Virus record (IMG/VR): IMGVR_UViG_3300035562_000082
Span: 32,001 to 96,000 of that record
DNA: 64,000 bases
Strand: one strand, 5' to 3'
Source: a virus
Taxonomy: Duplodnaviria; Caudoviricetes
The notes beneath the pieces are model-generated. The model worked only from the letters and a program-made list of their open reading frames with translations, ran no database searches and was not told where the DNA came from. Both the position numbers and the translations under genes were made by a program. Shown piece by piece: positions 838 through 59,620 of this stretch; within the stretch, counting starts at the first letter, position 1; every line of letters starts with the position of its first letter.

Positions 838-2113
838 AGGGGCGTGATGAAGGAGATACCATGAGCTACGTGATCTACGACAAGGACACCACGGAGATCA
901 TTCTGTGGGCGCCGTACGGTGGGGAGAAGACGTTCAAGACCAAGGCCGCTGGATTGGCGGCTAGAACCCGGATGGTGAAGGCCGGTAAGCTGAAGTTCCG
1001 CGATCGGATGTTGGATCCCGAGAAGATCGAGGTGATCGAGCGCGGAGAACTTGCGAAGATCGAGAAGCAGGAGTTGGTGACGAATCTGCTGAACGGCAAG
1101 ACCGTACTGGAGTCCGTGAACACCCCGTACTTCATGTCCGTCGGATCGGAAACCTACTGGAGTTCATGATGGCAAAGAGATACAGCGGTGTTTCGAGGCT
1201 GTACGTGTACTTGGAGGAGATGAATTTCTGGCGTGTGAAGGTGCAGAAGCTGTCACCGATTAGGATCGGGTTCCTGACTCGTGCAGATGCCGATGCCATT
1301 TACAGCCGCCTAGAAGGCGACCTGAGCCCCGAGAACCTGTGCCAGGATGGTGAGGCCAGTCCGTCGTACGTGCGGCAGCGTGGGGCGTTCCTGAGGGCCG
1401 TGGAGGCAGAGTTGAAGGCCCAGGGATTCCCGCACAAGACTGGAGGATGATGATGAGTATGGAAATGGCTCTTGCACAGGCGGGGGTGTTATGAACAAGC
1501 ATACGCCTGGGCCGTATCATCTGGTGATCACGCAGAAGAACGCCGACGGTTCTCCGCATGAGATGGAGATCCGTTCTTACGCGGTGTCGCAGAATTATGC
1601 TGTGTGGTTGGCCGAGCAGGGTAAAGAAAAATCTCCTGGTACCTGGGGCACGGTGACCATGGGCAAGTACCATCAGATGACCAACGGTTCTGGACCGACA
1701 TCTGGTCCGCAGATCCTGTTGTCGGATGAAGAGGCGTTTGCGAATGCCGAGCGTGTGCTTCTGTGCCTCAGTGTGCACGATGAACTGGTAGCGGCGTTGG
1801 AGCACTGCATCAAATGCCTTGACGTGTCGTCGTCTAGAGTAGCCGGAGGCGCGTTGAAGGAAGCTCGTGCCGCCCTTGTGAAAGCGAAGGCCAAGTGATT
1901 TGATCCCTTTGGGAGGGACGATGAAGTTCATGGTGAAGGTCAAGTTGGTGGTCGAGGCCGATAGTTCGGCCGATGCCACGAACATGGTGCTGGCGGCCAT
2001 GGCCGGGCTATGTGCTCGACCTGGAGCGGCAGGGGTTCGGATCACTGTGATCCGGGACGTGAAGGCCAAGCCCTGTAAGCCGGAAATGGCTGGCAATTGA
2101 TTGCCAGATCTGC

Positions 2114-2142
2114 TTGACAAACGTAGTGACTTGTGCCAGAAT
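2114..2142 (+). promoter_or_regulatory. sigma70-type early promoter P2
   Basis: TTGACA-17-CAGAAT; GGCAATTGATTGCC motif ends 8 nt upstream. Confidence 0.8.
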
Positions 2143-3114
2143 ACAGTTGTTGGTGGATCAAGGAGTGAGCGATGGGAATCTCGGCGCTTTACATCATGGT
2201 GGACTTTGATGGCGAGGTTGTTCGTGTGTATCCAAATCAGGAACACGAAATGACTGAACGTGCTTTCGCTGCTAAAAGAGTGGAGGGTGAAACCGCTTGT
2301 GGCAGTGTTGCTGAAGCAAAGCGTCGTGCCGAGGTATACGCGAAGAAGATGGCTGCGCGGTTCAGTTGTCAGTGGGGTTGTAACTATTGAACGGATGGTC
2401 AAGGAGTGACCATGAGCAACTGCATGACCCTCAATGAGTGGAAAGCCGAGGTCCGCAAGTTGTACCCCGGTGCGAAGTTTGAAAAGGACGCCGATGGTCA
2501 TCAGGCGTACGATGAGGATGGGATGTTCGTTGGTGACTGGACGAACCCCGGTGGTCATTACATCAGTCCCCCAATCAAGGAGTGGTGAACATGAGCTTCA
2601 AACCTGAGGTGATCGCCGATAGCAGTGGAAAATGGGTGGGCAATGCCCTACGGTTTGCCACTTACAAGGAAGCGGAGGACAACGTGGCGGATCTGTTTAA
2701 CCGCTGGATGTTGGTGCGGGAAACCCGAGTGGTTGAATCGTCCGACCCTGTGAACTACCGTTGGGTCGATGGAAAGCTGGAAGCCGTCAAGGAGTGACCA
2801 TGGGAACCTACGTTTATCGAGTAACGGCGAAGCGGGTGATTTGCAGCGACGGCAAGCCCGCGAACATCGCAAAGTACGCGTACAAGCCGTTTTGGTCCTG
2901 GGATGGTGAGAAGGCCAATGCCCGCATGGATTTCCGCAGCGGCTGCCCGGCGTCACGCCGGTTGGCCAGTGAGGGCCGGCTGACCGACCGCATCGTGTTC
3001 GAGGACAGTGATGGGAAGGTCTTCGGCAATCCCAACAACTACGGGACTTTCCATGATGCCGACGTTATCGGAACCCAGCGTATGCCGCGCCTGGAGGGCA
3101 TCACCGGCCCCAGC

Positions 3115-3143
3115 TTGACAAACTCGTGAAGTTGTGCCATACT
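3115..3143 (+). promoter_or_regulatory. sigma70-type early promoter P3
   Basis: TTGACA-17-CATACT. Confidence 0.8.
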
Positions 3144-3174
3144 GAGCATGGTTGAACGGTCAAAGGAGTGACAA

Positions 3175-7822: not shown

Positions 7823-8208
7823 TGATGATCAAGACCACGGGTGCGGAGTTTAAGCGGTTTTACACGGACAAGAGCTATTGGCCGGAGGGTACGTGGCACG
7901 ATGATGAGGAGATTTTGGTCGATGGCAAAGAATTTCCGCACGAGAATGACCTGATGACTGTGGCGGATGCCGCGATAATGCGTGTGGCTGCTGGGTGTGT
8001 GTACGAAGCCCAGGGTTATGAGCCGGATAATTGGCCGTCGTTGGAGGTGTATTTTCGACGGTGGTTGCGTGAACAATCGGTGGTGGTTGTGGCGGTGGAG
8101 GTTCCGAAAGACCGACTTCAACAGTTGAAGGACGGTCTCAAGGAGTTCGGCGGCAAGGTCATTGGCAATTGATTGCAAGTCCACGGTAGTACTACTGAAG
8201 GAGTCACC

Positions 8209-9264
8209 ATGGTAACGAAGAACGGCAAGGACCATCCGTTGGACGAGGGCGCGGAATCGGTCAAGCGCTTGACCAAGGACCTCAAGTTGGCGGCCAAGAA
8301 ACTGACGGACACCGAGGCCCGGTTTTTGGTCGATGGCTACTACATCATGCAGGAGAACCGCAAACGCAGCGACAACCAAGTGCGGGCGCTGGGGGAGAAC
8401 GCGGAGCCGAATTCGGTGCTGGCGTGGATGGCCGAACAGGCGGACGTGATGGAGAGCCAACTTAAACGCGCGCTCGATGCGTACACCGATGCTCATCCGA
8501 TGGGCAACTGGATGCGGCAGGTCGTGGGCATTGGGCCGGTGATCAGCGCCGGTCTGCTGGCGCACATCAGCATGGAGCCCTGGAAGTGCATGCGGCAGAA
8601 TCTGAAGAACAAGGCGTGTAAGCCCGGTGAGCCCTGTACCCCCCAATGTGGGCGGGTACCGACCACCACCACGGGCAAGATCTGGCGGTTTGCCGGGTTG
8701 GATCCGACTTCGGTTTGGGAGAAGGGCCAGAAGCGCCCGTGGAACGCCACGCTCAAGACCCTGTGCTGGAAGGCCGGGCAGTCGTTCATGAAGTTCAGCA
8801 ACCGCGAAGACTGTTTCTACGGCCAGAAGTACAAGGAGCGCAAGATCTACGAGTGGGAGCGCAATCTGAAGGGCGGGCAGGCGGTGCGCGCCACGTCGTT
8901 GCTGGAGAAGATCGGGAAGACCACTGAGGCGTATCCCTGGTTGGTTGGTTGCTATCACCCGGATGCCGTACGTGCATTGCGGACTGTCGCCGATGGGTCG
9001 TTGACGCCCCCGATGTTGGCGGCCATCAAGCTCAAGCCCGGTGAGGGCGTGCCGATGCTTCCACCCGGGCACATCGATGCCATGGCCCGTCGATGGGCGG
9101 TGAAGCTGTTTCTCGCGCACCTGCATGATGCGTGGTTCGAAGGTCACTTCGGGAAGAAGCCGCCGCTGCCGTATCCCATTGCGTTCCTGGGTCATGCGGA
9201 TGTGATCAAGTCGCCGATCGCCGCCCCGAAGTCCTGGGCGGAGGAGCGGCCGGCGGCGGAGTAA
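8209..9264 (+). CDS. TIGR-associated Tas protein, TasA-like (coiled coil plus IS110/Nop RNA-binding domain, no RuvC/HNH)
   Basis: IS110 C-terminal/Nop motifs VVGIGPVISAGLLA, IWRFAGLDP, KRPWNATLKTLCW, HIDAMARRWAVKLFLAHL; no N-terminal DEDD/RuvC domain; stop codon overlaps the first repeat of a 36-nt dual-repeat array; RBS AAGGAG before ATG 8209. Confidence 0.85.
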   Translation: MVTKNGKDHPLDEGAESVKRLTKDLKLAAKKLTDTEARFLVDGYYIMQENRKRSDNQVRALGENAEPNSVLAWMAEQADVMESQLKRALDAYTDAHPMGNWMRQVVGIGPVISAGLLAHISMEPWKCMRQNLKNKACKPGEPCTPQCGRVPTTTTGKIWRFAGLDPTSVWEKGQKRPWNATLKTLCWKAGQSFMKFSNREDCFYGQKYKERKIYEWERNLKGGQAVRATSLLEKIGKTTEAYPWLVGCYHPDAVRALRTVADGSLTPPMLAAIKLKPGEGVPMLPPGHIDAMARRWAVKLFLAHLHDAWFEGHFGKKPPLPYPIAFLGHADVIKSPIAAPKSWAEERPAAE

Positions 9265-18367: not shown

Positions 18368-18853
18368 ATGCCGCTCACAGCCAAAGGTCAGAAAATCCTT
18401 GCCGCGATGATCGAGGAGTACGGTGAGGAGGAAGGTACCAAGGTTTTTTACGCCAGTGCAAATGCCGGGACCATCGAGGGCGTGCACGAGGCCAGTAAGA
18501 TCGATCGGGGGTTGGTGCTCAAGGTCGCGGTGAAGGACAAGGTGACGCCGGAACTTCCGTTGCCCAATCCATTGCCGGTGGATGCGCCGTACGCCAGTAC
18601 GCCGAACAACGGGCTGGCTGGCCGGCAGAAGCGCGTGCCCGGAAAGCTGAATTGGGCGATCCTAGGGCAGATGCCGGGTCAGACGTTTCCAACAATCAGA
18701 GGACAAGGCCAGCCAACGGATCCACCTCCGGTGTACACGTACCCCGGCGGACCGTTGGTGCAGGCGGCGAAGGCCGAGATCGGATCGTACGTTGATCCTA
18801 TGGGCGGGAGTTTGTGGTTGACCAAGGTTTTCAAAGGGGATGGCCATGTTTGA
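18368..18853 (+). CDS. Hypothetical phage protein
   Basis: N-terminal MPLTxKGxKIxxAMxxxYGxxxGxxVFYASxNxG motif common in phages. Confidence 0.6.
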   Translation: MPLTAKGQKILAAMIEEYGEEEGTKVFYASANAGTIEGVHEASKIDRGLVLKVAVKDKVTPELPLPNPLPVDAPYASTPNNGLAGRQKRVPGKLNWAILGQMPGQTFPTIRGQGQPTDPPPVYTYPGGPLVQAAKAEIGSYVDPMGGSLWLTKVFKGDGHV

Positions 18854-21407
18854 GGCGTTTACCAGCAGGACGCGCGTGCAGGCGCAGAAGCGAGAGTTCA
18901 CGGAGGAGGAACGTAAGAACGCGGCGGCTGCGGGGCACGCCATGCCCGATGGCAGTTATCCGATCGAGAACGAGGATGACCTGAAGAACGCCGTGATGTC
19001 CTACGGGCGGGCCGGGGATCCCGAGGCCGTGAAGTACCATATCAAGCAGCGGGCGAAGGGCTTGAACCGCATGGACCTCCTGCCCGATGATTGGACTGAG
19101 CGTCCAAAGGACGTGAAGAAGAGCGAACCGGTGGACCTCAAGTACTACGATCCGTTGTTGGGTCAGCATCAACTGCAATTGATTGCCAAAGGTGAACTGG
19201 CAACGTCCAACGGCAACAACGATCTGACGGACACCGCTAAGGCGTATTACACGGCTAAGGACAAGGCGCATGCGGCGACCGACGGCGCGAACAAGGCCAG
19301 CAGCGACTGTTTCTCCAACAACTGGAATTCCGACGCCCATTCGTTCGCGGAGAAGGCCCATGGGATTGCCGCCGAGGCCCACAAGGACGCGGCCAAGGCC
19401 GCACGCGCGAACAACGACAGCAAGAACGATGAGTACCATAAACAGAAGATCGAGACCCATCAAAAGATGTCGGACGTGCATAGCAGTATGCACACACTGA
19501 AGTCCGAGGCCAGTCCTTTGGACAAGGCCATGATGGAACTAAAGCTGGCGATGGCCGGCGCAAATGCAAGCACAGGGGCGGTCAAGGGGGACGCCCCAGG
19601 ACACCCTTTTCGGGGTAACCAGCACACGTCGGGCGGCGGTGCTGGTGATGATGCAGACAAGGCGTACGCCGAGCGCGTCAAAGCTCAATTGGAGGGAATG
19701 ACCGATAACAAGAAGGTAACTGCGTTGACTGAGTGGTTCAAGGCCGAGGGCAAAGAAGTACCATCGGCGGACACCATGAAGCGTTTGGCGTCCATGGATC
19801 ACGATTCGATGATGAGCGCCGTGGCCGAGCTTGCGCGCGGAGGTGCGTCAAAGGATTCGTACGACAAGAAGGGCATGCCGATCGCTGATCATCCGTACCA
19901 CGAGAAGACCAGCAACAGCCTGCACTTCATCATGCGCGATGCCCACGAGGCGGCGACCAACGCCCATGCCATGGGCGATAGCAAGGGTGAGGGCAAGTAC
20001 CTGGATCAGATCAATGACGCGGCGACGGTCTTGAACTATCGGAGATCCAACGGCATTACCGAGCCCCGTGCGGCGAAAAAGAACGAAGTTTTTGCGTACT
20101 TCGATCCGCTATTGGGCGCGGGCGTGCAGATTCACGTTACCAAGAGCAATCCCAATCACGATGAGAAGGGTCGATTTTCATCCGGTGATGGTGGGGGCGG
20201 TGATAAAGGCGGGGAGCCGCCGAAGCCCGGTAGCAAGGAATGGTTGGACGCGAAGTCCAGCGGGCCAATGCACAAGTACGAGGACTCAACGGGCAAGATG
20301 CACCATGGGTACATGGAGCAGTACCTGGATCATGGTGGGAGTGATCACACGGCGTTCATGCGCGATCATCAGACGGGTGACCTGCACTTGGTTAGCGGTT
20401 CGCGGCTGAAGTCCATGGGCGTGGTATCGGCCGAGGAGAAGGCCAAGGTCCAAGGTGGTGATGACAAGGGCGGGAAGACCGGCGATCGAACAGCCAGCTA
20501 TCGTGAGGCCATGGCCGCTGGACATGATGCGGCGAACAAGCAGATGAAGGCCGCTGGGCGTACGGCCTGGAATGAGGATGATTGGAATACGGCGGCGTCC
20601 ACTGTGGCGAAACTCACAGGTGGGGGAGGCTCAACTGAACCAAAGCCGACGGAGATTAAGCCCGAGGCTAAACCAGCGGATGAGCCCAGTGTACGACCCA
20701 AGGGTAAGTCCGGATACAGCGATGAGAACCTGAAGGGCTATGTCGCGGGTTTGGCGGACAAGGCCAAGGCCCATAAAGAGAAGATGGGCTACGGTGATAC
20801 GTACAACCCGAAGTACACGGTTGAGCACGGACAGCGCTATGCCAAGGTCGTGACCAACGACGGCAGCAGTCGATCGGTGCATTCGTTCATCGACAAGCAG
20901 ACGGGGAACATCCTGAAGGCCAATAGCTGGAAGGCCCCGCATCCTACGCCCAGGGGAAACATCGGCGACGACAATTTCGGGCTCAAGAACGTCGATCACT
21001 TTGGCGCGCGGTATTTGACGAAGGCCGACGGCGCATCGACGTTGGATACGGCGGTTGAGCAACTTGAGCAGGTGATGAAGTTCAACGAAAACCATGATGA
21101 ACAAGGACGTTTTTCGTCCGGGGATGGCGCAGGCGGCAAGACCGACGATGAAAAACCTATTGCGCACCCTAATCTCACAAAGCAGCTAACGAACGCCGGG
21201 TACAAGCGAGCGCCCGAAGATCTGTTGGACATAGGACCGGATGACCGACTTGAGTTGTGGACGCATCCGAATCGTGATCCGTTGTTGCTCAAGGTCCATG
21301 GGCAGCTTCAGACCATGATCTCAACCCGTACGTTGTTGACCGATCAGAAGATCGCGCGTTCGCCCGAGGGTCGGTTGTTTCTTCAACAGGTGATGAAAGC
21401 CGCGTAG
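18840..21407 (+). CDS. Large multidomain (polyvalent) protein, probably virion-packaged
   Basis: 855 aa; MPDGSYPI module; repeated NxxHDxxGRF and GHxFxGNQ tags; VHSFIDKQTGNILKAxSWKAP module. Confidence 0.7.
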   Translation: MAMFEAFTSRTRVQAQKREFTEEERKNAAAAGHAMPDGSYPIENEDDLKNAVMSYGRAGDPEAVKYHIKQRAKGLNRMDLLPDDWTERPKDVKKSEPVDLKYYDPLLGQHQLQLIAKGELATSNGNNDLTDTAKAYYTAKDKAHAATDGANKASSDCFSNNWNSDAHSFAEKAHGIAAEAHKDAAKAARANNDSKNDEYHKQKIETHQKMSDVHSSMHTLKSEASPLDKAMMELKLAMAGANASTGAVKGDAPGHPFRGNQHTSGGGAGDDADKAYAERVKAQLEGMTDNKKVTALTEWFKAEGKEVPSADTMKRLASMDHDSMMSAVAELARGGASKDSYDKKGMPIADHPYHEKTSNSLHFIMRDAHEAATNAHAMGDSKGEGKYLDQINDAATVLNYRRSNGITEPRAAKKNEVFAYFDPLLGAGVQIHVTKSNPNHDEKGRFSSGDGGGGDKGGEPPKPGSKEWLDAKSSGPMHKYEDSTGKMHHGYMEQYLDHGGSDHTAFMRDHQTGDLHLVSGSRLKSMGVVSAEEKAKVQGGDDKGGKTGDRTASYREAMAAGHDAANKQMKAAGRTAWNEDDWNTAASTVAKLTGGGGSTEPKPTEIKPEAKPADEPSVRPKGKSGYSDENLKGYVAGLADKAKAHKEKMGYGDTYNPKYTVEHGQRYAKVVTNDGSSRSVHSFIDKQTGNILKANSWKAPHPTPRGNIGDDNFGLKNVDHFGARYLTKADGASTLDTAVEQLEQVMKFNENHDEQGRFSSGDGAGGKTDDEKPIAHPNLTKQLTNAGYKRAPEDLLDIGPDDRLELWTHPNRDPLLLKVHGQLQTMISTRTLLTDQKIARSPEGRLFLQQVMKAA

Positions 21408-26349: not shown

Positions 26350-26406
26350 TTGCCTGAATGACATTCGGAAGCTACAATCGGGAGGAGCCGATGCACGCGT
26401 CGCCGG

Positions 26407-26856
26407 ATGCACACAGACTGTCCAAAGTGCGGGAGTTCCAGTGCCTGTTATCAACTAAATGGGCCGGATATTGTACTGCATTGTTTGTGCGGGTTCTTCC
26501 GCGTGGTGTTCTCTCAGTTGGAGACCGTGGAGATCCATCACAACGGGGTGGGCGCGGATGTTCGTCTGCCGAAGACCGGCACGCACTTACGTCGAACGTT
26601 GTTTGCGGTCGAGAACTTGGAAGAAGCGAATACAGCGGAGATCGCAGAACGGTTGTGGGACCTGGGGTTGCACTACACTATGAGTGATGTAGCGTCGTAC
26701 CTCACGATCTTACGGTCCAAGGGTTTAGTGGAGTCACCGGTTATCCGTCGGGGGGTGGCCGGTGGAAGCACCTGGACGTTGACCGATGCGGCGATGGATT
26801 TACTGGGGGCCTTACAGCCAAGCAATGGAGTGCAAATATGCTATCGATCGGGGTAA
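26407..26856 (+). CDS. Zn-ribbon plus winged-HTH protein
   Basis: CPKC...CLCG; EIAERL...VASYLTILRSKGLV...TWTLT. Confidence 0.65.
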   Translation: MHTDCPKCGSSSACYQLNGPDIVLHCLCGFFRVVFSQLETVEIHHNGVGADVRLPKTGTHLRRTLFAVENLEEANTAEIAERLWDLGLHYTMSDVASYLTILRSKGLVESPVIRRGVAGGSTWTLTDAAMDLLGALQPSNGVQICYRSG

Positions 26857-27931: not shown

Positions 27932-27956
27932 CAGACGACGGTGTTTGTACTATAGT
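27928..27956 (+). promoter_or_regulatory. sigma70-type promoter P7
   Basis: TTGACA-17-TATAGT. Confidence 0.8.
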
Positions 27957-27983
27957 TTGAAGTACTCCAAGGAGTGGGGTGTT

Positions 27984-33841: not shown

Positions 33842-36244
33842 GTGCTGTTGTTGTGGACGGTCCATCCATCTAGTCGAGCGCTCACGGCCGTCGGGCAGGT
33901 AATCCGTTATCACCAGGATCTGGAGGTCCAGGTACAGAACGACATGCAGGCCATCCCCAATCCTCCGGGGTTGCATGTGCTGTTGGCCATGGGCGGGGAG
34001 CCGCTGGAGGTCCTGCGTGGACAGAAGATCGTACAGAAGAACCGTACGATCACCAGCCTCAGGAATCAACCGATCGTCCTGCCCAATACTCAGGCCCGGG
34101 GGTTGATCACCTACAGTCCGGAGATCTCGGAATTCGACTACGGGCACTTCGTGGACCTTCAGTGCGATGTGGGGGCGGCCATCAGGTTGGCGAAGACCGG
34201 GACAATAGAACCTCAATTAGGAGACTATCAGTACGTACCGGATCTCCAGCAGGTTCGTCAAGACCTGGAGAACCATTATCAACACCTACAGCACCCGGTG
34301 GACCTGGGGTTCGACACCGAGACCCGAGGGTTGGATCCGCTGGCCAAGGCCAAGCCCGATTGTCCACCGGGGTACATCATCAGTCTTCAGGTAGCGCATT
34401 TACCTGGACGTGCACAGGTTGTGTACTTTGAGAGCCTACAGCAGTTTACTCAGTGGCTGACCACGGGCACGAACCGACAGGACCTACAGTGGTTGTTGAC
34501 CACGAACAAGATCAAGCTCAAGGGCGCGAACGGCAAGTACGATCTCAACTGGATCTACCAGCACACGGGTATCGAGTGCACGAACTACGTGTTCGACACC
34601 ACGTTGGTGGGCAGCCTGTTGGACGAGAACCGATCGAACGGCCTGGACGTACACACCAAGATCTACGCACCGGCCCTTGGGGGCTACAGCGATGAGTTCG
34701 ACCGCACGACCGACAAGAACCGCATGGACCTCGTACCACCGACCAAGCTTCTACCGTATGCAGCGGCGGACGCTGATGCTGTGCTCCAGGTGGCGGCGGT
34801 CATGCGCGAGCAACTACTACAGGATCCGGCGCTCACACGGTTCTACGTTCATCTACTGCATCCAGCGGCTAGGGCGTTTGAAGTGGTCGAGCGCACGGGC
34901 ATCCTGGTCGATCAACAGGCCATGGCCGAGCTTAGATCGGACTTGAACACCGAGATTCTGCAATTGATTGCCAAGGCCAAAGGGATTTTAGGTGGTCGAG
35001 TGATCGCCAAACACGGTGATCCGGAGAAGCTTGGTGGGCTTAACCTCACAAAGCCCAGTATGTTGTGCGACTTCATGTTCAGCCCTATGGGGTTGAACCT
35101 CACGCCCAGGCTGATGACCGCTGGTGGACCGGAGGGCAAGGGCGAGAAGAAACCCGCCACGTCCATGGAACACCTGATGATGTTCGAGGACGTACCGGAG
35201 GCCCAGGAGTTTGTGCGGTTGATGAAGGACTATGGGAGCGCCACCAAGACCCTGAGTACGTACGTGATGAACACCGAGGGCACAAAGGGGTTCATGACGT
35301 TCCTGCGATCGGACGGACGATTTCACCCGAGCTATTGGTTCTTCGTCGGCAACAAGGACGAGGATGAGGGCGGGGCGGTAACCGGTCGGTTGTCGTGCAG
35401 GGATCCGGCGTTTCAAACAGTGCCGAAGCTCACGAAGTGGGCGAAGAGAATCCGCAGGTGTTATCCAGCACCACCCGGGTATGTGGTGGTGGAGATGGAT
35501 TTCGTACAGGGCGAGTTGATGGTCATTGCCTGCTTGGCGAATGAACCGAAGATGATCCAGGCGTTCCTGGAGAACAAGGATATGCATGTGCTGACCGGTA
35601 GCTCGATCGCCGGCATGACCTACGAACAGGTGCTGGCGCTCAAGCACACAGAGCCCGTGAAGTACGAACACATACGGTATCAGGCAAAGCCCGCGAACTT
35701 TGGATTGATCTACGGGCAGTTTGAGGAAGGGTTTAAGCGGTTTGCAGAGTTAAATTATGAACTAAAGATGTCGCTTGAGCGTGCAAAGGAGATTCGGAAT
35801 GGTTTTTTTGAGTTGTATGAGGGATTGGTAAAGTACCATAAAGAAATCAAGGCGTTTGCGCACAGACATGGTCACGTGCGTAGTCCCCTTGGTAGAATCC
35901 GGCACCTGCCGTTGATCAACAGCAAGAACAACGTGATCAGACAGCATGCAGAGCGTCAGGCGGTCAACAGCCCGACGCAGGCCACGTTGTCGGACATGCT
36001 GTTGCTGACCATTGCGTTGGAGCACCAGCAGGGGTTGTTCAAGCACGCACCGTGCTTTGCGGCTGTTCATGATGCCAAGTACTCGTACGTGCTGGAAGAT
36101 CAGGTGACGACGGTCGTACCGCAGATGGTGGAGATCATGGAGCACCTGCCGTTTGAGAAATTCAACTGGAAGCCGCAGTTGGCGTTCAAGGCCGACGTGA
36201 AGGTCGGGCTGAACATGGCGGATCTCAAGGAGTGGGTACAATGA
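33842..36244 (+). CDS. Family A DNA polymerase with 3'-5' exonuclease and a degenerate N-terminal UDG-like region
   Basis: ExoI FDTET, ExoII NGKYD, ExoIII YAAAD; TGRLS; motif A MDFVQGEL; motif B RYQAKPANFGLIYG; motif C VHDA. Confidence 0.95.
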   Translation: MLLLWTVHPSSRALTAVGQVIRYHQDLEVQVQNDMQAIPNPPGLHVLLAMGGEPLEVLRGQKIVQKNRTITSLRNQPIVLPNTQARGLITYSPEISEFDYGHFVDLQCDVGAAIRLAKTGTIEPQLGDYQYVPDLQQVRQDLENHYQHLQHPVDLGFDTETRGLDPLAKAKPDCPPGYIISLQVAHLPGRAQVVYFESLQQFTQWLTTGTNRQDLQWLLTTNKIKLKGANGKYDLNWIYQHTGIECTNYVFDTTLVGSLLDENRSNGLDVHTKIYAPALGGYSDEFDRTTDKNRMDLVPPTKLLPYAAADADAVLQVAAVMREQLLQDPALTRFYVHLLHPAARAFEVVERTGILVDQQAMAELRSDLNTEILQLIAKAKGILGGRVIAKHGDPEKLGGLNLTKPSMLCDFMFSPMGLNLTPRLMTAGGPEGKGEKKPATSMEHLMMFEDVPEAQEFVRLMKDYGSATKTLSTYVMNTEGTKGFMTFLRSDGRFHPSYWFFVGNKDEDEGGAVTGRLSCRDPAFQTVPKLTKWAKRIRRCYPAPPGYVVVEMDFVQGELMVIACLANEPKMIQAFLENKDMHVLTGSSIAGMTYEQVLALKHTEPVKYEHIRYQAKPANFGLIYGQFEEGFKRFAELNYELKMSLERAKEIRNGFFELYEGLVKYHKEIKAFAHRHGHVRSPLGRIRHLPLINSKNNVIRQHAERQAVNSPTQATLSDMLLLTIALEHQQGLFKHAPCFAAVHDAKYSYVLEDQVTTVVPQMVEIMEHLPFEKFNWKPQLAFKADVKVGLNMADLKEWVQ

Positions 36245-37082: not shown

Positions 37083-37556
37083 TTAATGCTGGCAGGTCGC
37101 GGGTAGGAACGGATAGGCCGCAACGATAGCACCAGCGGCCGTACCATTGGCAGCCGTGGACGTACCGCAGGTCCAGGTCACCGTACCATCGGCATTGCCA
37201 ACGCCGAAGATCCCCAGGAACTTGCCGTCAAGGGTCGAGCCCGTAGCGCCGACGGTCGTTACTACGCCAGCCACCGTGGCACTGGCTTGGTTGTAGGAAA
37301 TGGCGGTCATGTACTTGACGTTGGACGGCAGGGTGGTGCTGACCGGGCTGGCGGTAGTCGCCGGGAACGCCCCTTGCGATTGATAGGCTTCCGTCAGCGC
37401 GATCTTCGCGGCATCCAGGAACGTGATTTCCTCGGTGACCTTTGAGCGCGTCAGGTAGTTTTGATACTGCGGCAGGGCGATGGCCGCCAGGATGCCGATG
37501 ATGGCAACCACGATCATCAACTCGATGAGCGTGAAGCCCGTTTGTTTACGTTGCAT
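37083..37556 (-). CDS. pilA: Type IVa major pilin
   Basis: MQRKQTG|[27 protein letters not shown] class III signal; C-terminal disulfide loop WTC...PATC; RBS GAGGG. Confidence 0.95.
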
Positions 37557-37601
37557 AGTCTGTCCCTCAGGTTTCCGGCTTATTGCCGGCAGGAAGATAG
37601 T

Positions 37602-37618
37602 AAGCAATGACCGTGCCA
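37602..37618 (-). promoter_or_regulatory. sigma54 (-24/-12) promoter of pilA
   Basis: Minus strand reads TGGCAC-GGTCA-TTGCT, about 45 nt upstream of the pilin ATG. Confidence 0.85.
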
Positions 37619-37710: not shown

Positions 37711-37789
37711 TGGGTGACGTACATTGGCAATTGATTGCCCGGAGGGGTTGGGTGGCGTAGACTGCCGGCGTTCACACAATGGGGTGCGT

Positions 37790-40022: not shown

Positions 40023-43000
40023 GTGGATCCCCGAGTACTGCTAAAGCTTGAAGCCGCGTTGGTTCGGCGGTTACGCGCAAGCTGGAAGCGCGAGAGCACT
40101 CCTGTTTACCTGAAGATCCAACAGGCGATCACCGATTGTGATTGGCCCACGGCCGTCCAGCAGGTGTACAAACTGGACATGACGCACGTGGGGGATGAGA
40201 ACCGCGAGTGGATCCGGCATATGCTGCTGTCATTCGCGGTTTTTGGTGCGAAGATGGCGAACAAGCGCGGACCGTTGTTCTTGAACGCCGGTACGTATGA
40301 TCAACGACTCGATCATATTACGGACATCATTTGTCAGTACTTTGAACATCGAGCAACGGCCTTGGTACAAGCCCGGGCATTGCAATCAATTGCCGAGGCC
40401 GAACGCGAGGCCAAGACCCAGGTGGCGTACAAGTTCGAGGAGGACGAAGCCCGGGATGTCCATGGACGCTGGACAGCCGGGGGTCCGTCGTTGTGGCACA
40501 GTGGGCAGTTTGAAGCCCAGATATCTAAGGTCGGTAAGACCTACGACAACAAGGCCGATATGGCGTTGTTGAGTAAACGTGGAGCGACGCTTGAGAAGAG
40601 GTCGTCTAAAATTCAACAGGATTTTGCTTATCAAGACGATAACCCAGAGGGGTTTGATCAAGAACTAGAGAAACTGAATGACCAGTGGACGGCGGTAGTG
40701 CTTGCTCAAGAAGGGCTCAAGCGTTTCCACGATAAACCAACGGAAACGATGTTCATTGCCCGGGACGGGGACCGACTGTCTGGGTTGGCCTATGGGTTTG
40801 TGCGGGGCGATCAAATGGAACTTGATCGTCTGGCGTCGTTTCAACGGGGGGCTGGGAGTAAGCTGTTGGTGGAGTTCGAACAGAATGCGCGCGATCGTGG
40901 ACTACAGTCGGTCGTATTGCACTCAACGCATTATGCTGAGGGGTTTTACACCGCACACGGTTACACGTCCAAGGGCAAGAACAATGAATATGGGATTGTG
41001 GAGTTCGAGAAAGATCTGACGAAGACCAAGACCGTGAAGAAGATTGATCCAGAAGAAATTGCGTGCTTGGCAGTGCCGGCAGACTGGAAGCCCAGGGCTA
41101 TCAAGGGCGATCTGCCAGGGCATGAGTTCCATGGTAATCAATGGACTCAAGCAGCCGGGCAGTTCAAGTACGATCCAGCGGCCAAAGCTTGGACAGGGGG
41201 AACGGATGTTCAGCATCAGAGATTACGAGATCTACGAGTCCCCCCTGCATGGGCCAACGTCCGCCTTAACCCAGACGCTGACGCTGCTCTTCAAGCACTC
41301 GGAGTTGATGTTAAAGGCCGTACGCAGTACCTGTATAGTGCGGCCCACAGTGAACAAGCGGCGGCCGAAAAGTTTCAGCGGCTGAAGGACTTCAATGCCG
41401 TAGCACCGAAGGCCATCAAGCAGGCGTTGGCCGATATGCAGAACAAACAACTGGCGTCGGAGAAGCGAGATGCGGCGGCCGTGGTGTACCTGATTGGCAA
41501 GACCGGACTGCGTGTGGGATCGGACGCGGAGACCGGGGGTGCGGTCAAGGCCCATGGGGCAACGACGTTGTTGGGCCAGCACGTGACGTTGCTGGGCGAT
41601 AAACTGTCGTTGGATTTCGTGGGTAAGAAGGGCGTGCAGATTCACAAGGAGTTGACGGACCCAAAGCTCGCACAGTATTTGAAGGGCAAGGTCAAGTCCA
41701 TGGGCGATCGGTTGTTCAACACCACCGACAGTGCTGTACGAACGTATCTCAAGGACATCACGGGCGATCAGTTCAAGGTCAAGGACTTCCGGACATGGCA
41801 CGGCACGTCCACGGCACTCCAGGAGTTGAAGGACCGACCGGTGCCGAAGACCGCCACGGAGTTCAAACGTGTTGTGTCGGAGGTTGCCAAGGTCGTGGCC
41901 AAGCACTTGGGTAACACTCCCGCTGTGGCGAAGAGCGCGTACATCGATCCGGCGGTTTGGGGTGGTTGGGGCGGGAAGTTCGCGGTGACCAAGCAGGAGG
42001 TTGATCAACCGTTGATAGACGAGTTCCTGGACACCCATCAGTACGATCAAACTGGAAACTGGCGGCTTTTGCCTGATGTTGAGGAAGAGGATCTGGAAAG
42101 CGCAATTAAAGACGACATGGGCAGTGCTGATCTTCAAACGGCGGGCGCACTCAATCCCATGCAGGCCCAAGCTCCGGTACAGAGCCGACGATCGTTGAGA
42201 AGACGCAGGCGACGCAAGGGCGAGACCAGGACGCTGTACGTCCATCGACCGGTGATCAACGGTCAGACGATTGTTGATTGGGCGAAGACCCAGGGATTTG
42301 AAACGTGTTTACCACTGGAGAAAATGCATGTCACAATCGCCTACAGCAAGCAGCCGGTGGACTGGAACGCCATGGGTGATGCTGACACCCGTAATCTGCA
42401 CGTGGATGATCAGGACGACCGCGAGGTCAAACCCTTGGGTAGCGATGGAGCGGTGGTGCTCAAGTTCGTGTCCAAGAAACTCCACGATCGGTGGAAACAC
42501 CTGTGTGGCGCGGGAGCATCTTGGGATTACGAGGGTTACCAGCCACACGTTACCATCACTTGGGAAGCCCCGAAAGGACTTGAGTTATCAACGGTTGAGC
42601 CGTACACAGGACCGATTGACCTCGGCCCAGAACAGTTTGAAGAACTTGATGAAGATTGGGGGGACAAGGTAGTTGAGAAGGCCGATGAGACCGGTCGGTA
42701 TGTGACGCCGTTTACGTCGTTCGCCGATGAAGGTGAAGGACTGGTGCAGATGGTCAGCAGTTTGAACAGCAGTCGCATGGCCACCTGGGGGTTCACGGCC
42801 GAGGCCGATCAACTGGGGGTTGGACGTTATCGGTTGACGGCCGTCCTCGATGGGCGTACTAGTGAGTTCTGTCGGATAATCGACGGCCGGGTGTTTGACG
42901 TTGACGACGCACGACGCAAGGTCAATGAGGTACTGGCGGTTCAGGACCCGTCGGATCTTGAGCAGGTGCAGCCATGGCCTGATCAATCGAAGGCCGCGAT

Positions 43001-46311: not shown

Positions 46312-46469
46312 AGATCAGGCCGATCACGATCTTGAACAGCCGTAAAAAGACCAAGCAGGTCCTTCAATACCTGTTGAAAAAGCGGCCGGTTAAGCACTGA
46401 GGTTGTTCGGCAGTTGAGCAGGCCGTAAACTCCCGGCAATTGATTGCCAGACTATTAGGGGGGAATTAT

Positions 46470-47155: not shown

Positions 47156-47184
47156 TGGCCGTGCAATCAATTGCCAGGAGCCGA

Positions 47185-50402: not shown

Positions 50403-50471
50403 GACGGGGACTTGCAATTGATTGCCAGCGGCATATACTCCGACGTTTAACCCGGTTGAGGAGTGCTGCTG

Positions 50472-54972: not shown

Positions 54973-55667
54973 ATGGTCATCAAGTACAAGCTGGCGAACT
55001 TGATCGACTTGACGGCGCAGGTTGCGTTGTCCGACGATCCGACGAGACCCAAGATGGAAGTCCGGGGACTACAACTACAGGAGGTGATTCCTCTGTTGTT
55101 GGAAAACCGAGATCTGTTTGTCACCGCGTGGTCGGCTATTCAAGCGGGTAAAACCCCGGTTCAACAATTTGGGGGGATCTTGGCCACGGCCCCGGAATTT
55201 GTGGCCGCGATATTGCAGAAGGCGTGTACGAACATCGAGCTTGAGGACGGTCAGAGCTTTGGGACCCTGCCGATGGGCGTGCAATTGATTGCCATGGCCG
55301 AGGTGTTCAAGCTGACGTGCCCGGACCCAAAAAGGGTCGGCGAGTTGTTGTCCGAGGTGATGGGGCTGCTGCGCAAGAACGTGGACGAATCAACAATCAC
55401 GCCAGCACCCCTGAGCAACGGTACGAACGTGCAGGCCAACAACTCGCCACAAAACTTGCCGCAGACTACGAGCTAGTAATCTCGTCTGGACATCGTGAAA
55501 CGGAGGTCCTATCCTGGACGCCCAGGAAACTTGATACCGTGGTGTCGTTGGTGAACGATCGAAAGACCGTGGACGTACAAAACACGGCGGTGGCAATGCG
55601 CGTGGCCTTTGGCGCGGATAAGGATCAGTGGCTCAAGTTCTTGCACGGGGAAGAGGATGGCGACTGA
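54973..55667 (+). CDS. Tail assembly chaperone (54973-55476) with probable -1 frameshift extension (to 55667)
   Basis: In-frame slippery heptamer C CCA AAA at 55326-55332; -1 frame open 55317-55667; between tube and tape measure. Confidence 0.65.
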
Positions 55668-58600
55668 ACAAGCGGAATTGCAGATCATCCTGAAGGTCGT
55701 GTCCAACGCCAAAGAGGCGTTGGATGAACTGGCTGCACGGTTTACAGAATTGAGTGGTCAGCTTGGGAAGGTCGGTAAATCCGCCGAGGGTTTGGGTGAG
55801 GTCGGGGAGCACGCTCATGCGGTAGGCCAGCATCTGGAGGAAACGGGCGAGCATGCGGACACGCTGTTGAGTAAGTTCAACGAGTTACGAGAAGGCGCGT
55901 TGTTATTGGTCAAGAGCTTTCTGGCGTTGGAGGCCGTACGGCTCTTTCGTGAGTTTGCAGAAGAACAAGCGGCGATCGAAGTCATGGTCGTGGGCATGAA
56001 GAACATTGGAGAAGCCGCTGGTTATACCTCGGAGCAGATGACCAAGCTGGTGAAGGACCTCCAGGAGTTCGACATCACCAAGGGCGTGGCGGCCAAGAAC
56101 GTTGGGACGCTGATCGCCAATCAACTGTCGCCGGAGAAAATTTCAGAAATTGGTGCGGCGGCACGTAAACTGGCGCTGGAATCCGGTCGCTCAGTGGACG
56201 AGGTGTTTACGGTCTTGGCCCGGGCTGTGGCCACGGGTCAGACGCGGTTGTTGACCCGACAATTCCAGATCCTTGGGAAGTTCGATGCCACACAGGCGTT
56301 GCACGTGGAGGCCCAGCGTCGGTTGGCGGCGTCGGGCTCAAGTTTCATTTCCGCGAGTGAACGACCGGAGATCACAGCGGGAGCGATTGTTCGACGGATC
56401 AACGAGCGTGTGCCGGAAACCGCGATCAAGGAAGGTGCGGATACCGCAGAGGGGCGGTTGAAGCACCTGGGCGTGGTGTGGAAGGAGTTCAAGGAAAGTC
56501 TGGGTGAAGGCACGGAGACGGTATTTGGGGGTGTGATCGCGGGTTTGACGGCCATTGTTGAGGCCATGAAGGAATTTGTTGAGTCCCTGGGTAAAGGTAC
56601 CTCGGTGTCCAAGACCCTGGGTGAGGCCATGAGGAGCCTGGGCGAGGCCATTGCCGGGGCCATTAAGTTCGTGACCGCGCACAAGGATGCGATTAAGGTA
56701 CTGGCCGAGTTCGTAGGCATTTTGATAGCCTTTGATTTAGCCGGGTGGTTCTTGAAGGTCGCAACCGCTGGTGCTGGTGCAGCCGGCATAGCGACCTTTG
56801 GTACGGCCTTGAAGTACGTGGTTCAAATGGGGTTGTTGGCCGGTGGGCCGGTTAGGGCCGCGTTGGCGGGCTTGACGTTCACGGTCAGAACGTTGTTCGT
56901 GGCCCTGGGTGGTTGGGTGACCGTTGCGGCGTTGGTGATCACTGGGCTGATCGAACTGTATAACCGAAGTTCCGTTGTTCAAGCGGCGATCAAAGCCCTG
57001 GGTACGGCGTTTGTTGAGTTCGGTGATTGGCTGTGGGATACGGTGGTTACACGGCTTAAACTGGTGGTCGATGGATTTCGGTCATTATGGGAGGCCGTGG
57101 CCACCCGTAGTACGGCCCCGCTCAAGGCGTTTGTAAAGGAAGTGGGGGATGAGCTTGATCGACTACAGAAGAAAAAAGAAGAGGCAGAACGAAAAACCGG
57201 TGCTCGGTATCGTGGGGCTAAATTAACGGCCGAAACCCCAGCAGGACCGGTTGAGCCCTATGGGGGCGAAGCTCATGGGCGGTTTGTTCCCACTGTACAA
57301 CAGCCTAAACGAGAGAAAACCGATGAAGAACTAGCAGAAGAAGCGGCTAGAGACGCGGCAAATGCCAAGGCCATAGCCGATAATCGATTGAAAATCGCTG
57401 AAGCAGCATTGGCGGAAGAAAAGCGGATGGCCGCTCGTGCTCAGGCGGATGATGAGTTTCTGATGGCCCGTGGGTTGATCGCCGTTGAGAATTTTTATCA
57501 GCATCGACTGGCGGCGGTAAAGGCCGGGTTAGATGCAGAGTTGGCGGTTAACCGTGCTCAACGGAATAAGATCGATGCTGAAGAGGCGGCATATCGTGCG
57601 TCTCCGGCGTTCAAGGGCGGCGCAACAGCCGATGCACGGATTACGGAGTTTCAGACTCAACGGCAGGCGTTGCTGGCCAAGGACAAACTGGCGCGGGCAA
57701 AGGCCAATGATGATGAGGTTAAGCTCGTGGAGACCGGACAAACGAAGATCCGTGATCTTGAGCGTAAAGCCAGTGAGGAGCGGAATAAACTGGCGCTCAA
57801 GGACACGACGGATCTTGGAGCACGGCTCGAACAAATCCGTGCCAAGTACGAGAAGCTGAATGAAGAGGCGGGGGATAACGAGCGTTTGAAGGCCGCAAAT
57901 GCTCTCAATGAGGCGTACGATCGTCAACAGGCGGGGATCGAGACGCTGACTGCCCGGTGGGAGCAGTACAAGAACGTGCAAACGGCGGTGCTGGATCTTC
58001 AGACTGCGGAAGTGGCGTTGGCGCAGAAGACCTTCCAGTTGACCAGCTTGGGTGCTCAAGAGGCGAACAACGCGATTCTAGAACGACGGATAGTCCTTGA
58101 GCAACAACATCTTCAGGAATTGGAGAATCTGCGACAGCACTATGTGGCAGAGGGCGCGGCCGGGGTCAAGGCCGCCAAGGACACGGAGGTGGAGATGCTG
58201 AAAACCCGGGCGGCGATTCTTGGGCTGCAACAGCAGATCAAGACCGCAGGGGAAGAGATTGCCAAGAGCTTTAGTGATAATTTGACGGGCACGTTGGACA
58301 AGATCATCGAGCGCACGGAGCACGCAACGCAAGCGTGGAAGGACTTCGGACGGGCGCTGGTAGCTACCATCACGCACAAAGCCACTACGGGGTTTGCTGA
58401 GAGCATTACCAATGCCTTAGCCGGTGGGGGGACTAAAGGCGGAGAACCAGCAGGTGGAGGGATCTTTGGGTTCGTTGGAGGTCTGTTGGGCGGTGGGGGT
58501 AAGAAGCCCACGGGTGCACCGGGAGATCCGCTGGAGGTGGTTATGGGCGTGCCCAAAGTCGCGGGTGCGGCGGATGCGACTACGAAGCTGGCGGACAAGC

Positions 58601-59289
58601 TGGAGTCCACGAGCGAGAAACAAACGTCGTCGTTGTCCGAGGCACTTTCTGGTTTGGGCGACAAGCTATCGACGTTGTTCAACGATTTGGTAACGGCCAT
58701 TACTTCGATGATCGGCAGTACCAGTGGTGGGGCTGCCGGTGGTGGTAGTGGGTTGTTGGGGTTGTTCAGTGGGTTGTTTGGCGGAGGTGCAGGCGCTGGT
58801 GCAGCGGGTGCTGGCGCAGCAGGGGCTGGATCAGCCGGTGCAGGGGATCTGGTAGCTGGTGCTACAGTGTTGGCAGCCCGTGGGGGGAAGATCACGCCGT
58901 TTGGGTTGCTTCGGCATCTGGCTGAAGGCGGGCCGATTGTTGGCCCGGGTACTGGTACGTCTGATAGCGTGCCGATCATGGCCAGCCACGGTGAGTTCAT
59001 CATGAACGCCGACGCCACTAAGAGGTATGAACCGCTGTTGCACGCGATGAACGACGGGCGGTTGAACATTGGGTTTGGTGGGGCGCGGAAAATGGCCGCA
59101 GGTGGTGCGGTTGCCGGGGGGCATGCGGCAATGCCTGCTCCGCAGGTTCACGTTACTCATCGGATTGTGAACGTCATTGATCCAAAAATGGCCAAGGACT
59201 ACATGCAGTCGAGCGATGGTGAACAGGTGATGTTGAATTTCATTCGGCGTAATGCCGGGTCGGTCCAGCAATTGCTGGCAACGGGGTAA
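55657..59289 (+). CDS. Tape measure protein
   Basis: ~1210 aa, Ala-rich helical; C-terminal GPGTGTSDS...SHGEF. Confidence 0.92.
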   Translation: MATEQAELQIILKVVSNAKEALDELAARFTELSGQLGKVGKSAEGLGEVGEHAHAVGQHLEETGEHADTLLSKFNELREGALLLVKSFLALEAVRLFREFAEEQAAIEVMVVGMKNIGEAAGYTSEQMTKLVKDLQEFDITKGVAAKNVGTLIANQLSPEKISEIGAAARKLALESGRSVDEVFTVLARAVATGQTRLLTRQFQILGKFDATQALHVEAQRRLAASGSSFISASERPEITAGAIVRRINERVPETAIKEGADTAEGRLKHLGVVWKEFKESLGEGTETVFGGVIAGLTAIVEAMKEFVESLGKGTSVSKTLGEAMRSLGEAIAGAIKFVTAHKDAIKVLAEFVGILIAFDLAGWFLKVATAGAGAAGIATFGTALKYVVQMGLLAGGPVRAALAGLTFTVRTLFVALGGWVTVAALVITGLIELYNRSSVVQAAIKALGTAFVEFGDWLWDTVVTRLKLVVDGFRSLWEAVATRSTAPLKAFVKEVGDELDRLQKKKEEAERKTGARYRGAKLTAETPAGPVEPYGGEAHGRFVPTVQQPKREKTDEELAEEAARDAANAKAIADNRLKIAEAALAEEKRMAARAQADDEFLMARGLIAVENFYQHRLAAVKAGLDAELAVNRAQRNKIDAEEAAYRASPAFKGGATADARITEFQTQRQALLAKDKLARAKANDDEVKLVETGQTKIRDLERKASEERNKLALKDTTDLGARLEQIRAKYEKLNEEAGDNERLKAANALNEAYDRQQAGIETLTARWEQYKNVQTAVLDLQTAEVALAQKTFQLTSLGAQEANNAILERRIVLEQQHLQELENLRQHYVAEGAAGVKAAKDTEVEMLKTRAAILGLQQQIKTAGEEIAKSFSDNLTGTLDKIIERTEHATQAWKDFGRALVATITHKATTGFAESITNALAGGGTKGGEPAGGGIFGFVGGLLGGGGKKPTGAPGDPLEVVMGVPKVAGAADATTKLADKLESTSEKQTSSLSEALSGLGDKLSTLFNDLVTAITSMIGSTSGGAAGGGSGLLGLFSGLFGGGAGAGAAGAGAAGAGSAGAGDLVAGATVLAARGGKITPFGLLRHLAEGGPIVGPGTGTSDSVPIMASHGEFIMNADATKRYEPLLHAMNDGRLNIGFGGARKMAAGGAVAGGHAAMPAPQVHVTHRIVNVIDPKMAKDYMQSSDGEQVMLNFIRRNAGSVQQLLATG

Positions 59290-59301
59290 AGGAGGTACAT
59301 C

Positions 59302-59436
59302 ATGTGGGCCAAGATCGCGTTGAGAGTGGCATTGGGTGTGGCTGCTCTTGCGGCAGCGTACTTTGGTAAGAAGCAGTACGACAAGACGCATCCGAAAAAA
59401 CCGCCGACACCGGAAGCACCACCGCCAGCAAGCTAG
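59302..59436 (+). CDS. 44-aa single-TM peptide
   Basis: AAAGGAGGT RBS; MWAKIALRVALGVAALAAAYFGKK... Confidence 0.55.
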   Translation: MWAKIALRVALGVAALAAAYFGKKQYDKTHPKKPPTPEAPPPAS

Positions 59437-59620
59437 CGGCAATTGATTGCCGTGAGCCCGTGGCACATGCGCAGTGGTCGATGTGCCAGGGCGTTTGTTA
59501 GGCCGTCTATAAACCCAATTGAGATCGTGTGCTTGCTGTTGCGAGGCTGGCGGTATACGTCTTGGGGTTGGTGGACGAAGCCCAATAGGTATCAACGTGG
59601 ATTAGAGCGAGGAGACGAGA

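Follow-up and report, generated by a model that had tools for sequence, protein, structure and literature searches.

The 64,000-nucleotide stretch analysed here, called the window throughout, corresponds to bases 32001-96000 of a 117,594-bp phage contig (IMG/VR record IMGVR_UViG_3300035562_000082; GC content 55.6%), and it carries 13 perfect copies of a 12-base near-palindrome, GCAATTGATTGC, 11 on the plus and two on the minus strand, where none is expected. We hold, with slightly better than even confidence, that these copies are functional DNA sites belonging to a network of 14-bp dyad-symmetric operators that are spread evenly over the genome, a network which would be conserved across the family. 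As judged from sequence comparison, the motif is a trait of a broad Delepquintavirus-like siphophage family that had not been noticed before, and its sequence is not mentioned in the literature searched. The contig lacks a terminal repeat, and about 160-175 genes are predicted on it, on the plus strand nearly throughout. Positions given below are those of the window, unless they are marked as genome positions.

Results

The motif is enriched beyond chance and codon choice

The null set for the window consisted of 100 dinucleotide shuffles, none of which contained a single copy of GCAATTGATTGC. The original prediction, made by a reader of the letters alone, had reported 13 perfect copies with 11 of them in one orientation, and the motif count reproduced both figures. 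When up to one mismatch was allowed, the window yielded 21 matches against 0.42 expected. Over the whole genome the perfect copies number 23 (16 plus, 7 minus; 0 expected), and a further 11 copies with one mismatch, all of them genic (0.35 expected), fill the largest gaps between the perfect ones. The consensus widens to K-GCAATTGATTGC-M, a 14-bp dyad of the form K-GCAAT-YR-ATTGC-M, in which two arms of five bases enclose a central dinucleotide (5+2+5) and the flanking bases are complementary.

The copies that lie inside genes were assessed against a codon-aware null, obtained by permutation of synonymous codons. Eight genic copies are observed, whereas this null gives 0.33 on average and never more than 3, so that the enrichment persists when codon usage is taken into account; together with the shuffles, this rules out chance or codon bias as the origin of the copies. 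All the genic copies are read in a single frame, encoding the peptide QLIA when the motif runs forward and QSIA when it is reversed. Specifically, QLIA is encoded, as had been claimed, at 17530..17541 in a 143-aa gene (17165-17596), at 19175..19186 in an 855-aa gene (18840-21407), at 34960..34971 in the DNA polymerase gene (33842-36244) and at 55281..55292 in a 167-aa gene (54973-55476), always on the plus strand, while the copy at 40382..40393 on the minus strand encodes QSIA within a 1508-aa MuF polyprotein. Five of the eight QLIA peptides in the proteome are encoded by the full 12-mer. In the relatives, the rare peptides AIDC and AINC are present only at motif positions, and all four peptides are almost always encoded by the full 12-mer. 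Therefore, it is the DNA word that sets the protein sequence, and not vice versa.

The motif recurs in relatives of 40-65% protein identity

A megablast search of the window against named phages returned no close DNA relative. By protein similarity it comes closest, among named phages, to the Stenotrophomonas phages DLP5, DLP3 and Summit (genus Delepquintavirus), whose major capsid protein and DNA polymerase are about 65% and about 47% identical, respectively, to those encoded here, and after them to the Vibrio SIO-2/VHS1-like phages, Rhodobacter phage RcZahn and Rhizobium phage RHph_TM16 (TM16). In addition, we compared IMG/VR relatives labelled G001 to G008.

In relatives with 40-65% protein identity, GCAATTGATTGC is the most repeated 12-mer. 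It occurs 52 times in G001 (102.7 kb, complete), 26 times in G003 (a 62.6-kb fragment), 26 times in Summit and 27 times in DLP5 (both complete), and seven times each in G002 and G004. With the extra copies that have a CG or TA centre given after the plus sign, the counts are 17+3 in G007 (119.7 kb, complete), 11+2 in G006 (116 kb, complete), 5+3 in RcZahn and 4+2 in SIO-2. A reversed-pattern control gave 0 matches in every genome. The bases flanking the core differ by clade, being G..C in this phage and in G001 and T..A in the others, and variant forms are found in TM16 (TGCAACATATTGCA), KarBoss (TGCAATTAACTGCA) and SIO-2 (TGAAATTGATTGCA). In its general family form, TGCA-N6-TGCA, a TGCA box stands on each side of an AT-rich centre, at a distance of one helical turn from the other, and the central dinucleotide is always pyrimidine-purine, with TG/CA much commoner than CG or TA. 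A 12-14-bp site kept letter-perfect 7 to 52 times per genome, in Stenotrophomonas, Vibrio and Rhodobacter phages as well as in numerous uncultured relatives, points to an unrecognised system of genome-wide control or organisation in a large group of phages, among them the candidate therapeutic phages DLP3 and DLP5.

Copies are conserved and evenly spaced

As the window has no close relative, site conservation in homologues was assessed between Summit and DLP5. All 25 alignable sites are identical at 12 of 12 positions, where 27% would be expected to be so per site given that the 150 nt on each side are 89.8% identical; most of these sites are inside genes. The invariance of the sites in homologues, on which the original prediction had made its claim depend, is thus borne out in these two phages. 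The copies are under purifying selection, strong enough to override codon choice and to write odd peptides into proteins.

Between distant genomes most site positions turn over, and a few are kept, such as those before the protease gene and after the major-capsid terminator. The spacing of copies was summarised by its coefficient of variation, which is about 0.95 under random placement and which was lower in all four genomes tested: 0.65 in this phage (P 0.024), 0.70 in G001 (P 0.006), 0.52 in G003 (P 0.0002) and 0.43 in Summit (P <0.0002). Even spacing combined with positional turnover indicates that selection on the number and spread of sites is at least as strong as selection on particular places. 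Taken together, the codon-aware enrichment, the Summit/DLP5 site identity, the over-regular spacing and the family-wide occurrence argue well for the selected binding-site network that had been proposed. Neither the family-wide occurrence nor the motif-spelling TIGR guide described below had been part of that proposal.

Placement relative to genes, promoters and strands

Copies at intergenic or boundary positions make up 65% of the total in this phage, 42% in G001, 46% in G003 and 27% in Summit, whereas non-coding DNA accounts for no more than about 9% per genome. Typically, a stop codon precedes the copy by a few bases, and the next ribosome-binding site follows just after it. In the window, intergenic copies on the plus strand are found upstream of the portal gene, about 50 nt from its start (37727..37738), and 23 nt upstream of a start codon (46436..46447), and a minus-strand copy (47163..47174) precedes the protease ATG by 11 nt, at a position that is also occupied in G001, G003 and Summit; copies ahead of the portal and protease genes had both been foreseen. 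A further one, which had been assigned to the front of a tail-tip gene, is indeed intergenic and is placed here after the tape-measure gene (59439..59450, plus strand; gene at 55609-59289).

A stereotyped early promoter of sigma70 type, consisting of the extended -35 box TTGACAAAC, 16 or 17 bases and TAnnnT, recurs in the genome at 6142, 6268, 8439, 15429, 25454, 31139, 37079, 62182 and other positions (genome coordinates). We counted 11-12 such promoters in this genome, 15 in G001 and 14 in G003, where the box reads TTGACGAAC, and none in Summit; they are nearly all intergenic, with 3 of 17 in G003 inside genes. A motif copy stands 7-12 nt upstream of the extended -35 box at 5 of the 12 promoters in this phage, at 7 of the 14 in G003 and at 2 of the 15 in G001, which amounts to 14 sites 7-12 nt upstream of TTGAC(A/G)AA over the three genomes, and in none of the three does a copy lie between an early promoter and its gene.

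Within the window, the intergenic copy at 2093..2104 (plus strand), 9 nt upstream of the TTGACAAAC box of an early-type promoter, is the only one that obeys this rule, and outside the window three further copies lie 8-10 nt upstream of promoters. The earlier statement that two copies precede their -35 boxes by 8-9 nt therefore holds for 2093, which is 9 nt from TTGACA; the other copy, at 11028..11039 on the plus strand, is 5 nt upstream of the weaker element TTGGAA-18-TATACT. The overlap with a TTGCAA-16-TATACT promoter that had also been described was recovered at 50414..50425 (plus strand), just past the major-capsid terminator, at a position likewise occupied in G001 and in Summit and DLP5. 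Both here and in G001, a promoter-like element shares its -35 box and spacer with this post-capsid copy. As a separate observation, some copies in G001 form the loop-proximal part of intrinsic-terminator hairpins or directly precede terminators (26939 and 46948; 17868 and 46212).

By our arithmetic, the 11:2 orientation bias in the window has a binomial P of about 0.02 and the 16:7 ratio over the genome one of about 0.09. The bias is not kept in relatives, being 23:29 in G001 and reversed (8:18) in Summit, though genes run one way in all of them. A bias that is weak, and lost or reversed in relatives, gives no support to a polar, stoperator-like mechanism and fits a symmetric reader.

A TIGR-Tas locus carries a guide that spells the motif

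Two motif copies bracket a dual-repeat TIGR-Tas locus (8209-11016), whose array gives a lag-36 autocorrelation signal. The first copy (8165..8176, plus strand) lies over the stop codon of the upstream gene, 33 nt ahead of the tas ATG, and the second is the copy at 11028, directly past the end of the array. The tas gene (8209..9264, plus strand) encodes a Tas (TIGR-associated) protein of 351 aa, which is a probable second reader of the motif and not itself a member of the site network. The array (9295..11016, plus strand) comprises about 47 units of 36 bp, each made up in order of the edge repeat GAAYGAGTC, a 9-nt spacer, the loop repeat GAGAGCACC and another 9-nt spacer. A Pfam search with the Tas protein gave no match, there was no RuvC or HNH match in it, and no domain was assigned to its N-terminal 90 residues or so. 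When the protein and its G002 homologue were searched against the PDB as a two-sequence profile, TasR (9MTY, E 3.3e-9) and TasH (E 2.8e-6) were retrieved; a structure model of the protein (mean predicted local distance difference test score, pLDDT, 40) was too poor for fold comparison. The 36-bp units, the alternating edge and loop repeats, the paired 9-nt spacers and the adjacent Tas gene are those of the TIGR-Tas systems described by Faure et al. (2025, PMC12045711) and by Xu et al. (2026 preprint), whereas two features differ: the array is longer than the usual 5-15 units, and one guide corresponds to an operator that is conserved in many copies within the phage's own family.

This guide is encoded by the unit at 9981..10026 (plus strand), with spacer A AGTTGCAAT and spacer B GTGCAATTG. 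Joining spacer A to the reverse complement of spacer B, the way in which targets are rebuilt in the published systems too, gives AGTT-GCAATCAATTGC-AC, which contains the motif exactly centred. No other unit rebuilds the motif, nor do three other geometries, and we calculate the chance of a motif-spelling guide in a 47-unit array at about 4e-5. The geometry used here yields, by our own derivation, 3' overhangs, which fits the 3' overhangs reported for TasR (PMC12045711). The predicted target of the Tas ribonucleoprotein would be GTGCAATTGATTGCAACT. A second, RNA-guided reader of the motif is probably present in this phage.

The guide fits the T..A-flanked 14-mer TGCAATTGATTGCA and not the G..C-flanked form of the phage's own sites. 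Against its own genome it has at least 3 mismatches in 18 at every site, and at most sites a mismatch falls in the inferred spacer-A seed; the best self-match, 15 of 18 with the inferred seed intact, is at 8163-8180, in front of tas. If only those sites are counted that have no more than three mismatches and whose inferred seed is intact, there is 1 in this genome, with 2 in G001, 16 in G003, 11 in Summit, 7 in RcZahn, 6 in KarBoss and 5 in SIO-2. The form TGCAATTGATTGCA, with T before and A after the core, occurs at none of the 23 own sites, where about 2.4 would be expected (Fisher P about 0.02, by our arithmetic). Exact 18/18 targets were found in four IMG/VR contigs that bear the motif and of which two were shown to be relatives, although in so large a library an exact match is only weak information. 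With the exception of the motif guide, none of the spacer pairs matched the phage's own genome or nine relatives above chance at up to two mismatches, and a pattern search for the motif guide in other IMG/VR arrays gave 64 matches, none of them in a 36-bp array.

Among the genomes examined, TIGR-Tas is present only in this phage, G002, G005 and G008. The latter two Tas-bearing genomes (IMGVR 3300046782_000129 and IMGVR 3300026121_000008; both about 112-118 kb) carry one-letter core variants, GCAACTGATTGC in 12 copies and GCAATTGAGTGC in six, and the canonical 12-mer is almost missing from them, compared to 13-20 copies in Tas-free relatives of like size. The complete relatives that lack TIGR-Tas (Summit, DLP5, G001, G006 and G007) hold 13-52 copies. 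Since Tas-free relatives carry more copies, the TIGR system cannot explain the network; rather, it gained a guide against it.

Because the guide matches T..A flanks and nearly all of the phage's own copies break the match at a flank, it looks as if it were aimed at the operators of competitors. We put forward, tentatively and as something short of probable, that the target is TGCAATTGATTGCA in a rival clade, that the own copies escape through G/C flanks that break the seed, and that the tas-proximal copy perhaps serves autoregulation. If this is right, it would be the first time that a TIGR guide is assigned a class of natural targets, what most spacers target in nature being unknown in published TIGR-Tas work, and it would amount to RNA-guided jamming of a competitor's whole operator network at 10-25 sites at once. 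The motif also provides a tractable natural target for a TIGR-Tas guide, and a guide directed at an operator that a family conserves in many copies would show in what way nuclease-free Tas proteins can take part in competition between phages.

Candidate proteins that could read the sites

The hosts of motif-bearing phages span Gamma- and Alphaproteobacteria, which makes a phage-encoded reader more plausible than a host factor. Candidates with a helix-turn-helix (HTH) fold were sought by Pfam, PHROGs and annotated relatives. The best of them is a 141-aa MerR/RacA-like winged-helix protein encoded outside the window (genome 10768-11193), between the SF2 helicase and RecA-like genes of the replication and recombination module. 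It matches Pfam MerR_1 (22.2 bits, cut-off 21.6) and PHROG 19880, 'transcriptional regulator', and has homologues in G001, G002, G003, KarBoss, SIO-2 and Summit, in the last of these as gp059. Its structure model (pLDDT 87) shows a helical hairpin followed by a strand-HTH-wing arrangement and a long helix, and the best Foldseek matches were the DNA-bound MerR-family protein HiNmlR and the RacA DNA-binding domain (probability 1.0, E about 0.02). The motif was found within 10-20 kb in 16 of 18 IMG/VR loci recovered through this protein. A distortion of DNA at the dyad, such as MerR-type proteins bring about, would go well with the conserved pyrimidine-purine centre. From these sequence and model comparisons we regard it as a candidate reader, with roughly one chance in three of being the right one.

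Several other candidates were considered and set aside. The ParB-like protein of the clade, of the Summit gp111 type and encoded beside the terminase, occurs in G003, TM16, RcZahn and KarBoss and is absent from this phage, G001, G002 and SIO-2. The O-like initiator is absent from SIO-2 and KarBoss and thus is no universal reader, a gp32-like single-strand-binding protein (genome 8525-9334) was dropped given the annotation in RcZahn, and a homologue of the DLP5-type 'transcriptional repressor' (27079-27396) has no Pfam match and almost no database relatives. The type IB topoisomerase domain of the MuF protein is not conserved in motif-bearing relatives. A sigma54 promoter reading of GGCA...TGCC was also rejected, as the spacing is GG-N9-GC and not N10, and the T..A-flanked clades lack the GG. 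Look-alike sites of IHF, FNR or Fis do not fit the motif. Among the proteins scanned, which did not include all small genes, neither a CI-like repressor, of which the original prediction had likewise seen none, nor a Cro/CI-type gene was recognised.

Discussion

Resemblance to dispersed-site systems

Networks of dispersed palindromes are known from several systems. RacA of Bacillus subtilis binds about 25 dispersed 14-bp palindromes (ram). The KorB/OB system of IncP plasmids, Noc/NBS, ParB/parS and MatP/matS use 12-70 palindromic sites of 13-16 bp, some at -35 boxes and others remote, and act in global silencing or chromosome organisation. The network described here shares with RacA/ram a 14-bp dyad site scattered many times over a chromosome, and its candidate reader is predicted to have a MerR-type winged helix with a dimerisation helix. 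It differs in belonging to a phage genome, in an AT-rich motif where ram is GC-rich, in sites that spread evenly over the whole genome and abut promoters, and in the extra N-terminal helical hairpin of the candidate reader. As regards ParB/parS-type systems, the motif is likewise a dispersed palindrome of this size class, whereas no CTPase-type reader was identified; the proposed parS/NBS analogy fits in site architecture, but the one clade-wide ParB-like gene assessed, which lies next to the terminase, is absent from this phage.

The stoperators of cluster A mycobacteriophages (L5 gp71), with which the sites had also been compared, occur in about 25-35 copies of 13-14 bp in short intergenic gaps and in genes, and are asymmetric, pointing in one direction relative to transcription. 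Many copies across a phage genome are common to both cases, and some relatives of this phage are temperate. However, the motif described here has 5+2+5 dyad symmetry and an orientation that is neither fixed nor conserved (16:7, 23:29 and 8:18), and on these points the stoperator analogy fails. Finally, 434/P22-type operators (ACAA-N6-TTGT) are 14-bp sites in which two outer boxes of 4 bp, separated by one helical turn, enclose an uncontacted, deformable centre, an arrangement comparable to the family form TGCA-N6-TGCA, but they are clustered at one or two control regions and not dispersed. By analogy, then, the network appears to be closer to RacA/ram or KorB/OB than to stoperators.

A model for the network and points against it

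We favour a model in which the sites would be read on double-stranded DNA by a symmetric, phage-encoded dimer, with a pyrimidine-purine step at the dyad that can kink. The MerR/RacA-type winged-helix protein of the phage would be the likeliest candidate for this dimer, and the network may regulate or organise the phage chromosome globally, shutting off or insulating early promoters and the boundaries of operons much as RacA/ram, KorB/OB or Noc/NBS would do. Its role would be early-promoter control, insulation or chromosome organisation. In this phage the TIGR guide, complementary to the motif with T..A flanks, could in addition act at the single good self-site before tas.

Several observations weigh against parts of this model. 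Promoter sites make up only 5 of the 23 copies here and 2 of the 52 in G001; being so few, they indicate that promoter control cannot be the whole function. The fold match of the MerR-like protein is weak by its E-value (0.02), its homologue was undetectable in RcZahn, where the exact motif is present, and in TM16, and the co-occurrence of protein and motif is confounded by common descent. No other DNA-binding candidate is universal, the O-like initiator and the ParB-like protein being patchy as well. As for the guide, the arrays of G002, G005 and G008 lack it, and it has no fewer than three mismatches to all own sites while TIGR effectors are reported to be mismatch-sensitive.

Alternative explanations

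The idea that the Tas-tigRNA complex is itself the main reader of the phage's own GGCAATTGATTGCC-type sites, with the network maintained for this self-regulation, draws on the one guide in about 47 that rebuilds the 12-mer exactly (the 4e-5 chance given above), on the two copies that flank the locus and the best self-match before tas, and on the report that nuclease-free TasA is a guided transcriptional repressor (bioRxiv 10.64898/2026.09.09.750476). We nevertheless judge it rather improbable, because five complete relatives (Summit, DLP5, G001, G006 and G007) have 13-52 copies with neither Tas nor arrays, the guide is mismatched at 3 or more of 18 positions at every own site, with a mismatch in the inferred seed at most of them, TGCAATTGATTGCA is found at 0 of 23 sites in the own genome, and the arrays of the three other Tas-bearing phages carry no such guide. 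Somewhat less far-fetched, though still unlikely in our view, is a role of the sites as landmarks for the loading or pausing of recombination or replication, or as shared linker homologies for module exchange, employing the O-like initiator with DnaB, the SF2 helicase, the Cas4-like exonuclease and the RecA-like protein. An over-regular density of one site per 2-5 kb, the many sites at gene and module boundaries, the exact bracketing of the TIGR-tas cassette, a copy directly upstream of the O-like initiator gene and the position of candidate HTH genes within the replication and recombination module would all be in keeping with such landmarks. However, we found no origin-like cluster of sites, SIO-2 and KarBoss lack the O-like initiator, passive linkers would not stay identical at 12 of 12 positions in coding regions, and the promoter rule is left unexplained. 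In addition, a 12-14-bp dyad with no orientation rule, in a word common to Stenotrophomonas, Vibrio and Rhodobacter phages, is unlike Chi-type sites.

Two further proposals seem to us more remote still. The transcribed motif could act as an RNA hairpin with a 5-bp stem and a tetraloop, serving mRNA processing, stability or translation, as the many copies between a stop codon and the next Shine-Dalgarno sequence and the G001 copies at the tip of terminator hairpins might suggest; model 18-mers with added flanks (CUG...CAG or GUU...AAC) fold at -6 to -8 kcal/mol in either orientation. In native context, however, the hairpin is not in the minimum-energy fold and stability is like that of shuffles (z +0.5 and -0.1), no Rfam family matches, the stem shows no covariation and its letters are unchanged across phages of 40-65% protein identity, and a third to three quarters of the copies are inside genes. 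The promoter copies, moreover, are always upstream of the -35 box and therefore outside that transcript. We hold the hairpin to be very improbable, and marginally more so a site for a DNA-modifying, nicking or restriction-type enzyme, such as a loading site for hypermodification or for nicks like those of T5. T5 DNA has fixed, site-specific nicks, which the T5-like replication genes of this phage bring to mind, and a PPDK-like kinase and two phosphatases are conserved family-wide. DLP3 DNA resists 15 restriction enzymes (PMC7326821), from which it follows that the clade modifies its DNA. Still, no methyltransferase or nickase is linked to the motif, and the promoter position rule has no role in such a scheme. 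To our knowledge, none of the known phage hypermodifications is specific to a 12-mer. These alternatives leave the dyad-symmetric operator network as the reading that we prefer.

Neighbouring genes

Some genes near the sites deserve mention in their own right. The PPDK-like kinase and the two phosphatases, of DSP/PTP type, are clustered with unknown proteins at 24379-31210, and the cluster is conserved in all the family members that we examined, those of Vibrio, Rhizobium and Rhodobacter among them; it may be tied to the restriction-resistant, modified DNA of DLP3. The 1508-aa MuF-type head protein (40023-44549) contains GNAT acetyltransferase, type IB topoisomerase and Acb1 (anti-CBASS phosphodiesterase) domains, in place of which its Summit homologue has a ParB-like nuclease domain. 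An 864-aa protein (21409-24003) with weak Pfam matches to RelA/SpoT-like and VapB-like families has homologues in G001 and G002, and an HNH_3 domain with a C-terminal HTH, typical of a free-standing homing endonuclease, is encoded at genome 27072-27548, with homologues in G001 and G003. A complete type IV pilin gene (37083-37607), with a Pilin domain and the N-terminal methylation motif, lies between the polymerase gene and the portal gene and, unlike almost all other genes of the phage, is on the minus strand; type IV pili serve relatives such as DLP3 as receptor (PMC7326821).

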